Part shown: piece by piece, positions 4,020-18,137 of the stretch
Layout of the letters: each line of letters opens with the position of its first letter
How positions within the stretch are numbered: position 1 is the stretch's first letter
Source: Octopus vulgaris
Lineage: Eukaryota
Direction: 5' to 3'
NCBI GenBank assembly: GCA_951406725.2
Contig: OX597818.1
Coordinates: 125,550,001-125,614,000 of the forward strand
Length of the DNA stretch: 64,000 nt
The notes under the pieces: generated by a model
What the model saw: only the letters and a program-made list of their open reading frames with translations
Database searches by the model: none
What the model was told of the DNA's origin: nothing
Translations under genes and position numbers: made by a program

Positions 4020-4492
4020 TCCTTCTCTAGCCACGCCTGGCTCATAAGGGCCGATATCCCTACCTGAACGGGACGCCGGTCCATCGCAGGTGAGCTGCAA
4101 GATTCAGGAGGAAAGAGTCAGAGAAGGTTGTGACGAAAGAGTCAGCAGAAGTTCGCCATTACCTTCTGTCGGAGCCGCGTGGAGCTTAGGTGTTTCGCTC
4201 ATAAACACACACATCGCCCGGTCTGAGATTCGAACCCGCGATTCCCTCGACCGCGAGTCCGCTGCTCTAACCACTAGGCCATGTGCCTCCACGCACAAAT
4301 ACATACACACACATCGCCCGGTCTGAGATTCGAACCCGCGATCCCTCGACCGCAAGTCCGCTGCTCTAACCACTAGGCCATGTGCCTCCACGCACAAATA
4401 CATGCACACACATTGCCCGGTCTGAGATTCGAACCCGCGATCCCTCGACCGCGAGTCCGCTGCTCTAACCACTAGGCTATGTACCTCCACAG
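4020..4492 (-). mobile_element. tRNA-derived SINE, family C, with a triplicated ~89-bp head
   Basis: Three copies of GCCTAGTGGTTAGAGCAGCGGAC..GGGTTCGAATCTCAGACCGGGC (A and B boxes) precede one body. Confidence 0.8.
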
Positions 4493-6640: not shown

Positions 6641-8639
6641 TATACTAGCAATGCACTCCGGCAATACCCGGGTGTTATTACCTGCAGTCACATTGTATTA
6701 TTTGTTACTTTCTTATGGGCAGAATCAGCACACGTGGTGTATGAAACAAACGACTTTCTTTATAAACATGCTTTTTGATAATTTTCTGATGAAAAACGCT
6801 GCAGTTTCCGTCTGCTACATCCAGTAGCAAGTCTGTGCTTGGTCTAGAGCTATAGTACAAAGCACTCGCCCAAGATGTTATGCAGAGGGACTGAACGTGG
6901 AACCATGTGGTTGGGAAGCAAATTTCTCAATCACACAGTCATTCTTGCACCTAATATGTATGTGCGTTTGTGTCTGTTTACATTTGTTGTTAAATCGAGT
7001 ATTGTGTCCCACTATGTCATGTAGCAGTTCATCAAGCAGAGATCTATAGAATAAATGCCAGATTGAAATATGTACTGAGGTCAGTATAATCAATTAAATT
7101 TTTGAAGGTGATACCCCATAATGGTGACAGTCGAAAGACTAAACCCAGTAAAATAACGTTTAAAGATTTAATGGCTTCAAATTTAAGGTAATAGATAACT
7201 AACCACAAGATAAGGAGTTCAAAGCTTCACATTGAACTTCCACTCTATACGATAATACTATGTATACATCTCAGTGTACTTGACTTCCAACAATTAACAA
7301 TTGTAATTTGAAGTTGAATGGGTGGCAGTAAGAAAGATGTCCTGGTTTCTTAAAAAATTATTGTGCAAAATATTATGAGAAAAAAGTTTTTCTCCACAAC
7401 AAAACACACACACACGTACACGCAAGCGCATGGGCACATACACACATACACACGCACACACACACATACACACAGAAGTGTTCTGAGCCCCTACAAATAG
7501 CAGCCAAATCTCTCTTAAAACACACCCTTTCATCAAAAGAAAGACACAGATTGACGGTATTTCATGATGAAGAAAAACAAACAAACAAACAAAAACTATG
7601 CGATGGATCTGCAACATCAGAGGCAACTCTGAACTAAACAGAATAAACATACTTCACATTGAATGAATGATTACCTACTAAACAATACTAATAAAGTTGA
7701 CGGTATATCTTCGTAGTTTCATTCCTTGATAAAACTCGATGTATTTTAAGCATTTTCTCATTACGTTCTATCTTAGATATATTGTTCAGGCACAGTTGCC
7801 TTCCTTAGCTAAAGACTTAAAAATTGTGCGACCCGACTTCGTTTACGAGGTTATTATTGTAGTAAAAAAGAGTTGAGCAAATAAACATACTTCATTTGGT
7901 AGCTGAACAATTATTGAATCTTTTGATACCTCATCCGTCAAAATCGGCAACTCAGTTTTCGAATCCATAAGGAACATATGCGCACACATACACACAAACT
8001 CAGTTTTATATATTAAAATTATATTGTATTGAGATGGTTAAGATATTTAAGAAGTCTTACACAAGTAAATTTATAATCAAACGCAAAAAGAAAATACTGG
8101 CGTAATCTAAAATCATGACGCGATCGACAGATTCCTAGTCACAAAATGTCTCCCCACCACGCTGGATGCCATGCTCCAAAATACGCAATGTTGTGATGTA
8201 TCGTATAGGATATTGTGTGACAGTATTCACACTATACCCTATGATGTAATTAAGAGCAAATTTTCTTGGTTAAATTGTCGAAACAGAGAATCGAGAAAAT
8301 GTGATAGTTTCAAACTAGAATAACCCCTAATACAAATTCAGTTATATATCAAGTCATTTCATGGTTCATTTAATCGTCTTCACTTCAGTAATATGTATTT
8401 CATGTCATGCGTATCGTGGTTGAACTATATTTTATTCGATGTTCAGAACTATGCGATATACAGGTGCTTAGCGCGGAAATGACTGCAAAATATCGTTATC
8501 TGTCACACTCTTTCACGTTCGGGGCGATTTCGTTTCACTTACCTATGAGTGATGTATTTTCAAACACAATACGTCTTTAAAGAGTTTTCATCTAGATGAT
8601 GTACCGCAGCTTCACAACGTTTACATCCAGACACTTAGG

Positions 8640-9201
8640 TGATACAAGAAAGGGACAATAAAACATCCAGATAGACGATACAAAGAAAACAAGGATGGGT
8701 CATTCGTAGTTTTCTTTCCTCACTCGAGTTCCAGATTATCTTTGCAATTTCGGCTGGTTATACTCGAGATTGCTCTAATCTGACCAGCCCCGAGGAAAAA
8801 CTAAGGCATTATATTCCTTGGAAGAAAGCAGCGAATGTATACGAAAACAAGGACAAAAAAAAAAACGGAGAATGTTACAAAAATACAAATAACAGGACAT
8901 AAAAACAGGTGTCTTTCGACTAAGGACGAATTAAATTAAGCTGGCGTGTGTGGAAGTAAAGCCTTACGGCATTGATACAAGATTTCACAGGGACAGGGAG
9001 GAATATAAATGTTGCACGGACGGCGGCCGAACCAAGAATGAGAGGTCAGGCCTGGTCGAACACCGGTCACGTGAGGAGAAAAGAGAGAGATGTAGAAGCA
9101 GAAGGACAGAAGAAATAAGGAGGGGGCAAGAAAAGAATGTGAAGTGAAAAGAGGAGGGAAAGTGAGCATGAAGAGAATGCAAGGAAATGTGAGAGAGGGG
9201 G

Positions 9202-9203
<2 letters not shown>
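8640..9203 (-). mobile_element. Non-autonomous repeat next to (TA)n, carrying a permuted hammerhead-like motif
   Basis: Same layout as 17617-18344: an A-rich segment, a structured motif, then a purine-rich segment with GGTCACGTG. Followed by (TA)n. Confidence 0.55.
8708..8802 (-). ncRNA. Non-circularly permuted hammerhead-like motif (core C3 changed to G)
   Basis: GCAAU-C-UCGAGU / ACCAGCC-GAA-AUUGC / ACUCGA-GUGAGGA. Stem I is 6 bp; stem III is 5 bp, extended by CAGAUUA/UAAUCUG. Confidence 0.55.
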
Positions 9204-9251
<48 letters not shown>

Positions 9252-16842: not shown

Positions 16843-16986
16843 TTCCTCATTCTACATTGAGAGAAGAAAGAGATGGACGCTTCAATTCTATGCTGCTGCC
16901 GCATTATGTCGTACGTGAATGAGAGGATTTGCATCCCCAACCAAGAATTTTTGATGTAACACATGTCCGTGTGGAAGCTGTTGTGC

Positions 16987-17064
16987 GCGGCTGAAGAAGG
17001 CCACAGACATACATTATGCATTGTTATAAATCTGTCTAATAAAGGCCCGAAACATATGTACCGC
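16987..17064 (+). ncRNA. Type I hammerhead ribozyme in the inverted pLTR copy
   Basis: Reverse complement of 13602-13679. Predicted cleavage is after GUA at 17060. Confidence 0.85.
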
Positions 17065-17100
17065 TGAATCCTTCGCATCATGTTTTTATTTTATTTTGAT

Positions 17101-17616: not shown

Positions 17617-18137
17617 CTTGGAAATGGATACGTCGCGTTCAATTAGATAAATAATAATGAATAATATATATACATATACATGCATATCTCGGTACATGAC
17701 GTTACCAACGGTGCAAATAACATGAAATACGTAACCAACGAGTAAAATTGGAAAACAGGACAAGTAAACACAGAGAAAGGACCCTTCATCAGTTGTCGGC
17801 TATATACTCCTCATTTCGAGCATTCAACGACAATATGAGTCTTCAAAGACAGTTTCTCCCATAAATTCTAAAATACAATTTAGGATTTATGGAAGGTCAA
17901 AGTTGGGAACAAAAACATAACAATGGAGACATACAAGGAAACTGAACGAAAGCAAATATGGAGGGTCGTTAGAGCAGGTCGAGAGGAAAATAGGGAACGC
18001 TAGGAGAAGCATGTTTTTGAAAAGAGAAAACGTAGAAGAGAGTGGAAAAAACCACGCCCGCTCTTTTGAACGTCCGTGCAGGAAAAGTAAGATGGTCACA
18101 TGAGGAAAAAAAAAGATGGATGATGGTCACGTGTGAC

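Follow-up and report, generated by a model that had tools for sequence, protein, structure and literature searches.

A predicted hammerhead ribozyme opened by a four-way junction in a non-coding Penelope-like repeat of Octopus vulgaris

Results

A truncated non-coding repeat carries the motif

We analyzed a window of 64,000 nucleotides from Octopus vulgaris (contig OX597818.1, positions 125,550,001 to 125,614,000), a microsatellite-rich stretch of a 2.8-Gb genome. The motif under study lies in a minus-strand copy of a Penelope-like repeat, here called family B1 (Table 1). Over 477 nt, this copy matches the family majority at 92.9% identity; it is missing about 25 nt of the usual 3' end and adjoins a (TA)22 tract that is likely its insertion target. 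A strict descriptor, composed of blocks S, G and C in that order plus an upstream partner for stem II, matched the window once and matched none of 60 local shuffles; a looser descriptor gave two matches in the window, the B1 motif and one at 17835. An Rfam scan returned nothing at gathering score. Single-strand folding of 8708..8802, the span given by the initial annotation, was not significant (z -1.6; -2.3 for the plus strand) with a method to which pseudoknots are invisible.

Table 1. Positions of the repeat copies and of the predicted structural elements in the window
Feature	Position	Strand	Remark
Family B1 repeat copy, 5'-truncated, ORF-less, Penelope-like	8623..9202	minus	extent common to 29 other loci
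(TA)22 tract, 5' edge of the B1 copy	9205..9248	.	many family copies adjoin (TA)n
Whole rewired motif	8837-8701	minus	137 nt, contains all strands
Stem IV, 5' strand	8822..8837	minus	distal CAUUCG 8837-8832, proximal UUUCUU 8827-8822
Hairpin V	8790..8821	minus	8 bp; arms 8821-8814 and 8797-8790; 22-nt loop
Stem II, 5' strand	8784..8789	minus	supplies position 10.1; upstream of cleavage block
Block S	8762..8783	minus	outer stem III 8783-8776, stem III 8773-8769, C17 8768, stem I 8767-8762
Predicted cut	between 8768 and 8767	minus	5'-end step at site
4-nt linker and block G	8744..8761	minus	stem II 3' strand 8757-8752, GAAA 8751-8748, stem III 8748-8744
Core block	8717..8738	minus	outer stem III 8738-8731, stem I 8729-8724, core 8723-8717 (G for C at position 3)
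Stem IV, 3' strand	8701..8716	minus	begins directly after A9
Family A copy, same wiring, sequence-unrelated	17780..17898	minus	core 17792-17786, A17 at 17834

Two ordinary type I Penelope-style hammerhead motifs also lie on the minus strand of the window, at 25372-25310 (core 25357) and 37331-37270 (core 37316). The first has a stem II of GGCUG/CAGCC, as in family B. An additional A follows its A9, at the step where stem IV leaves in the rewired form described below. An open frame of 417 aa (16851-15598, minus) is what we take to be the C-terminal part of a Penelope-like protein, with the thumb, a cysteine-rich linker and a GIY-YIG-like end. It gave no Pfam match, and we found nothing supporting a link between this fragment and the B1 motif. 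The string CUGAAGA occurs with identical flanks at 16991 on the plus strand and 13675 on the minus strand (window 16890-17080), which suggests an inverted duplication from about 13.7 to 17.0 kb. Three tandem 99-nt copies with a tRNA-like box, at 4205-4490, are likely a SINE.

Family B is abundant and forms partial tandems

The family B repeat is 710-790 nt long, has no ORF, and is present in well over 3,000 copies. Searching with the B1 stretch yielded 4,527 first-look candidates, 40 of which were scored, and a 24-nt B1 pattern had 734 exact matches in the genome, compared with 0 for its reversed control. A sister subfamily, B2, gave 1,576 and 2,462 matches to two patterns. The unit closes on itself: what lies upstream of the unit start is the unit's own 3' end, again with no ORF. 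Partial tandems with periods of 706-787 nt were present in six of the seven loci that have two same-strand motifs. Copies stop about 170 nt past the predicted cut, in a TA-rich site, and some show a short extension into the next unit, like the tails described for Penelope-like elements (PLEs). Several family B loci, L064, L089 and L133 among them, have an inverted copy, truncated at its 5' end, right beside the main copy, an arrangement typical of PLE insertions. Families A and B are otherwise unrelated; in each, the ribozyme is preceded at a distance of about 300 nt by a pyrimidine tract and then CACGUGACC, at approximately 9075-9062 and 18135-18122 (minus) in the window.

The hammerhead core is conserved in the family and altered at position 3 in the window copy

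On the minus strand, the cleavage block comes first, then the GAAA block, then the CUGANGA block. This is the order of type SGC, and hence the reversed order noted in the initial annotation corresponds to a non-circularly permuted hammerhead. All strings quoted there lie where it had placed them on the minus strand, including the triplet AUC (C17 at 8768), the core GUGAGGA, GGCUGGU (8789-8783) and AGUUUUU (8802-8796), and stems I and III and the outer stem III helix pair as it had drawn them. In the family, CUGANGA, GAAA and a U-H cleavage site are all present and each is flanked by stems I, II and III; the core, GAAA and the stems are conserved across 29 other B1 copies. Stem III comprises 5 + 8 bp, and its outer helix ties the strand after the stem II 5' strand to the strand before stem I on the 5' side. 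At position 17, motif matches have C, A or U with few exceptions (G in 5/124, 1/51 and 0/37). We judge the motif to be real and under selection, and the family to be probably catalytic.

The window copy differs at one critical base. The family core is CUGAGGA, with C3 in 27 of 29 other aligned B1 copies and, among the listed matches to the 24-nt pattern, C at core position 3 in 100 of 100. In the window copy, G3 stands opposite an unchanged G8 and the C3-G8 pair is absent. Since C3G is known to eliminate cleavage of a PLE hammerhead (PMC11167929), the window copy is likely inactive through this change, as the initial annotation had supposed, and is likely a decayed member of its family. That annotation also gave stem II seven pairs and the linker between stems I' and II' three nucleotides. 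Both values hold for the window copy and neither for the family, which has 6 bp and 4 nt; the seventh pair and the shorter linker result from a change at 8783, which is C in 27 of 29 other copies.

Two other assignments of the core were rejected. The strand order is, on inspection, incompatible with an HDV-like nested pseudoknot. A core split before G8-A9 does not fit either: the two bases preceding stem II differ among the families (GG, GG, AG, UU), but every family keeps G8-A9 on the same strand as CUGANGA, which places the break after A9.

The strand after the core is predicted to enter a four-way junction

The strand before GAAA pairs with 8789-8784, upstream of block S. This upstream completion of stem II, which the initial annotation had proposed, recurs as 5-6 bp in sets A, B1, B2, C and E. 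The canonical type SGC stem II, between the post-core and pre-GAAA strands, is ruled out, as none of the six sets allows it more than 1-2 Watson-Crick pairs out of 5. Instead, AAGAAA directly after A9 pairs with 8827-8822 to form the proximal part of stem IV, and CGAAUG pairs with 8837-8832 to form the distal part. Hairpin V fills the stretch between stems IV and II with no spare base on either side. Comparison of B1 with B2 shows both sides changed at two of the six stem I pairs, and in B2, two compensatory-type changes make internal-loop positions of stem IV paired, with two U-U pairs where stem IV joins the core.

The initial annotation had assigned the post-core strand differently. There, one upstream strand bridges the core, and stem II is split, with the pairing of AGUUUUU and GAAAACU as its second part; stems IV and V would then be incidental, or one arm of a two-fold switch. 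The AGUUUUU/GAAAACU helix can be drawn, with 90% of cells paired in 83 B1 regions and 94% in 26 B2 regions, and it appears in folds of a 111-nt stretch that excludes the upstream strand. However, its mean pairing probability falls to 0.03 (B1) and 0.00 (B2) once 8837-8822 is included, whereas the two stem IV helices reach 0.38-0.83 and hairpin V about 0.5 in the same 83 and 26 regions, using a program whose scope excludes pseudoknots. The helix also overlaps hairpin V, its only changes in B2 are from U-A to U-G, and in families A, C and E stem IV begins directly after A9 and V abuts II. We therefore judge this reading improbable, although AGUUUUU/GAAAACU could be an alternative fold.

On this comparison, the likelier partner of the post-core strand is 8837-8822, the two making up a stem of their own (IV), while hairpin V abuts stem II. 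A separate stem IV with a hairpin between it and stem II would make a four-way junction, not one helix bridged by a single strand. Because the stem IV helices outcompete AGUUUUU/GAAAACU, the motif begins at 8837 and not at 8802, and is thus larger than the annotated span. We note that the B1 probabilities for stems IV and V are lowered by 5'-truncated copies in the set. In single-sequence folds, hairpin V forms about half of the time in other copies and has a probability of 0.01 in the window copy, where one of its pairs is broken (C at 8792).

The same wiring recurs in sequence-unrelated families

A gap-free junction of stems IV, V and II is present in A, B1, C and E, with no sequence common to their stems, and is looser in B2 and D. 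For family A, 30 of 4,197 candidates were aligned; for family C, 30 copies from 778 and 389 pattern matches; and for families D and E, 20 each. The automatic junction finder missed D and E, and the positions in E, which has one mismatch in each of stems IV and V, were set by hand. Family D has a clear hairpin V, a stem II of 3 bp with mismatches on either side, and a single unpaired base following A9. In stem V of family C, a G-C/A-U exchange divides the 30 copies 24 to 4. The earlier argument that sequence had turned over while pairing was retained is borne out by this comparison between families.

Copies begin preferentially at the predicted cut

We sampled copies with patterns located downstream of the predicted cut, so that the choice of copies was unbiased by 5' length. 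The sets comprised 93 B1, 70 B2 and 49 C copies (212 in all), and the test range was -100..+20, which excludes a B2 cluster at -131 and all values at -150 as alignment limits. Ten of the 93 B1 copies begin at -1..+5, compared with 2.1 expected (p 7e-5; 0.002 for any 7-nt window). B2 and C show the same excess with a broader shoulder. For the pooled sets, 49 ends fall at -1..+20 versus 37 at -100..-2 (hazard ratio 4.3, p 3e-11); the excess is significant separately in all three sets, and a freely placed change-point fits best at -1. Such a step is the pattern that would be expected from templates ending 5' at the cut. The excess is a broad shoulder to +20 with no single-base peak, and some ends merge with (TA)n; it could arise partly from reverse transcriptase stalling on structure.

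RNA reads were available from three 2026 runs of one study whose species match is uncertain. These placed 770, 705 and 537 fragmented, unstranded reads on a B1 copy, with both strands alike and no pile-up of ends at the site; coverage of a B2 copy by such reads was patchy. Reads of this kind carry no information on expression or cleavage, nor on the abundant circular RNA monomers that characterize non-LTR retrozymes.

Stalling raises a second explanation, in which the structure is selected as a binding or pausing signal for a Penelope protein, at which reverse transcriptase stalls, and is not a working ribozyme. Most copies do extend past the site, with ends upstream of -1 in 72 of 93 B1 copies; the junctions in B2 and D are weak; and the hammerhead of a Poseidon element was dispensable for insertion in vitro and cut only with protein (PMC11167929). 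A signal of this kind would not, however, readily account for CUGANGA, GAAA and U-H being kept in hammerhead geometry across unrelated families, for a position 17 that varies among C, A and U with G so rare, or for a 5'-end step that fits best at -1. We find it unlikely, and retain the hammerhead as the preferred reading.

The motif is found in the tails of some published Naiad elements

Naiads are reported by Craig et al. (2021, PMC8557442) as lacking canonical hammerheads and preferring (TA)n; in some, half of a core is present and its counterpart lies at a distance of 35-50 nt, and Naiad_Ovul is marked 'HHR_half_core'. The family E motif is the tail of the published Naiad_Ovul and Naiad_Obim of that paper, and a motif from the octopus Naiad tail has 151 exact matches in the host genome. 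At family E locus L241, a reverse transcriptase fragment (RVT_1, E 2e-5, below the Pfam cut-off) lies collinear upstream, with the motif about 870 nt downstream. Family E is the only one for which a reverse transcriptase was seen; family B loci gave no such match.

We inspected 15 published Naiad tails by eye, assigning names from the metadata order in the PMC8557442 supplement. The full junction is present in three (Obim, Ovul and the coral Amil), Esco has a degenerate version, and 10 of the 15 showed no such motif in their last 300-450 nt. The tail of the record before Naiad_Hpol, which is Naiad_Hcon by metadata order, reads as an intact type-CSG hammerhead; only two examples of this form, both metagenomic, have been published. 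The tails before Naiad_Sglo and Naiad-2_Skow (oyster and acorn worm) have in common a GC-rich structured motif with no hammerhead core.

Family B resembles the Naiads of PMC8557442 in its partial-tandem pLTRs, its 30-40-nt tail and its (TA)n insertion bias. It differs in being without an ORF: we detected none with an N-terminal GIY-YIG, a CxC motif and a C-terminal reverse transcriptase, and the link is one of common RNA architecture and insertion style. Family B also shows the non-LTR retrozyme trait of a non-coding tandem unit with one hammerhead, mostly as partial dimers and not as long arrays. Its Naiad partner is a putative one, because no autonomous element sharing the 3' end of family B was found, and its mobilization by a Naiad protein is likewise putative, because no sequence common to B and E was detected (no nucleotide similarity between family B and the Naiad family E unit).

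Discussion

Our preferred reading, which we consider probable, is that the window motif derives from a predicted hammerhead located close to the 3' end of a Penelope-like repeat without coding capacity, and that C3G has likely inactivated it; its blocks are in the order S-G-C, and its core is predicted, from sequence comparison, to reach stem II through an inserted four-way junction. During transcription, the 5' strand of stem IV, hairpin V and the stem II strand would be made first, and stems III and I would then form. CUGANGA would stay in one piece, with the strand after A9 closing stem IV. Stem IV may stack on V, and stem II may stack under the core as in a normal hammerhead, while the short linker between I' and II' would hold stems I and II together, replacing a loop-loop contact. 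Folding would be complete only after synthesis of the post-core strand.

Within tandem transcripts, the ribozyme would cut part of the time, and the RNA template would then begin at the cut. Reverse transcription, supplied in trans by a Naiad-type enzyme, might start about 170 nt downstream of a ribozyme and proceed either to the cut end or through uncut or religated RNA, which would give partial tandems and read-through copies. Such partial cleavage would fit a Poseidon element with a protein-assisted ribozyme and with unprocessed RNA as its main insertion substrate (PMC11167929).

A third explanation would confine activity of the core to strand-swapped dimers or to pairs of tandem units; the units do occur in partial tandems, and as a monomer the fold requires several helices to cross. 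Dimer activity of minimal PLE hammerheads was reportedly seen by Lünse in 2017. We regard this as very improbable for the octopus motif: its strands are all contained in 137 nt, the 5 + 8 bp of stem III make a long helix, and cleavage is reported for monomeric SGC ribozymes whose linker is similarly short (PMC10085705).

The closest known relative of the predicted monomeric fold is type SGC itself, in which HRIMA-1 and its variants cleave in vitro (Eckert et al. 2023, PMC10085705). As described in that paper, type SGC resembles the octopus motif in its S-G-C order, the short linker between stems I and II, the full core and multiple pseudoknots. Type SGC also has an extra helix that connects stems I and II at their distal ends; the outer stem III helix may be its counterpart in the octopus motif. 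The block C of type SGC, consisting of a stem I strand, CUGAnGA and a stem II strand, is continuous, whereas in the octopus motif the stem II strand precedes block S, and the inserted stems IV and V follow A9. Moreover, type SGC comes from metatranscriptomes, whereas the octopus motif occupies thousands of retroelement copies in an animal genome. Eckert et al. assume that CUGAnGA is inseparable from the stem II strand, because insertions at that step do not exceed 1-2 nucleotides in any known alignment, and Perreault et al. (2011), in the part consulted, give core insertions of 1-2 nt only. We found no description of a wiring with a four-way junction after A9 in the literature searched, in which subscription papers are thinly covered.

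Family B also shares much with type I PLE hammerheads and non-LTR retrozymes, as presented in PMC11167929 and bioRxiv 10.64898/2026.07.22.740005: one ribozyme per unit near the 3' end, partial tandems, a 3' tail extension, AT-rich targets, and non-coding units likely moved by PLE proteins. The type I hammerheads are circular permutations with a three-way junction, whereas the 710-790-nt units of family B carry the rewired form.

We favor, with less assurance than for the window motif, a broader reading of these results. Animal Naiad-type retroelements and their non-coding passengers would use an active hammerhead topology new to the literature, in which the supposedly indivisible block of CUGANGA and stem II is opened by a four-way junction, and in vivo some of the retrotransposed RNA would owe its 5' end to the cut. 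Together with the intact type-CSG hammerhead in a nematode Naiad tail, this would make non-circularly permuted hammerheads common in animal genomes and would explain the 'missing' ribozyme of the clade.

If this reading is true, the hammerhead fold gains a fourth break point, whose absence was assumed in the paper that defined non-circular permutations, and such ribozymes, so far placed on anonymous metatranscriptome contigs, now also occupy animal chromosomes in thousands of copies. The rewired layout shows why descriptor and covariance searches overlook these hammerheads, and the four-way junction beside the active site would be a ready handle for engineered RNA switches. The 5'-end step would be rare genomic evidence for a PLE hammerhead cutting its transposition template, and the stated puzzle that Naiads thrive without detectable hammerheads would become directly testable.
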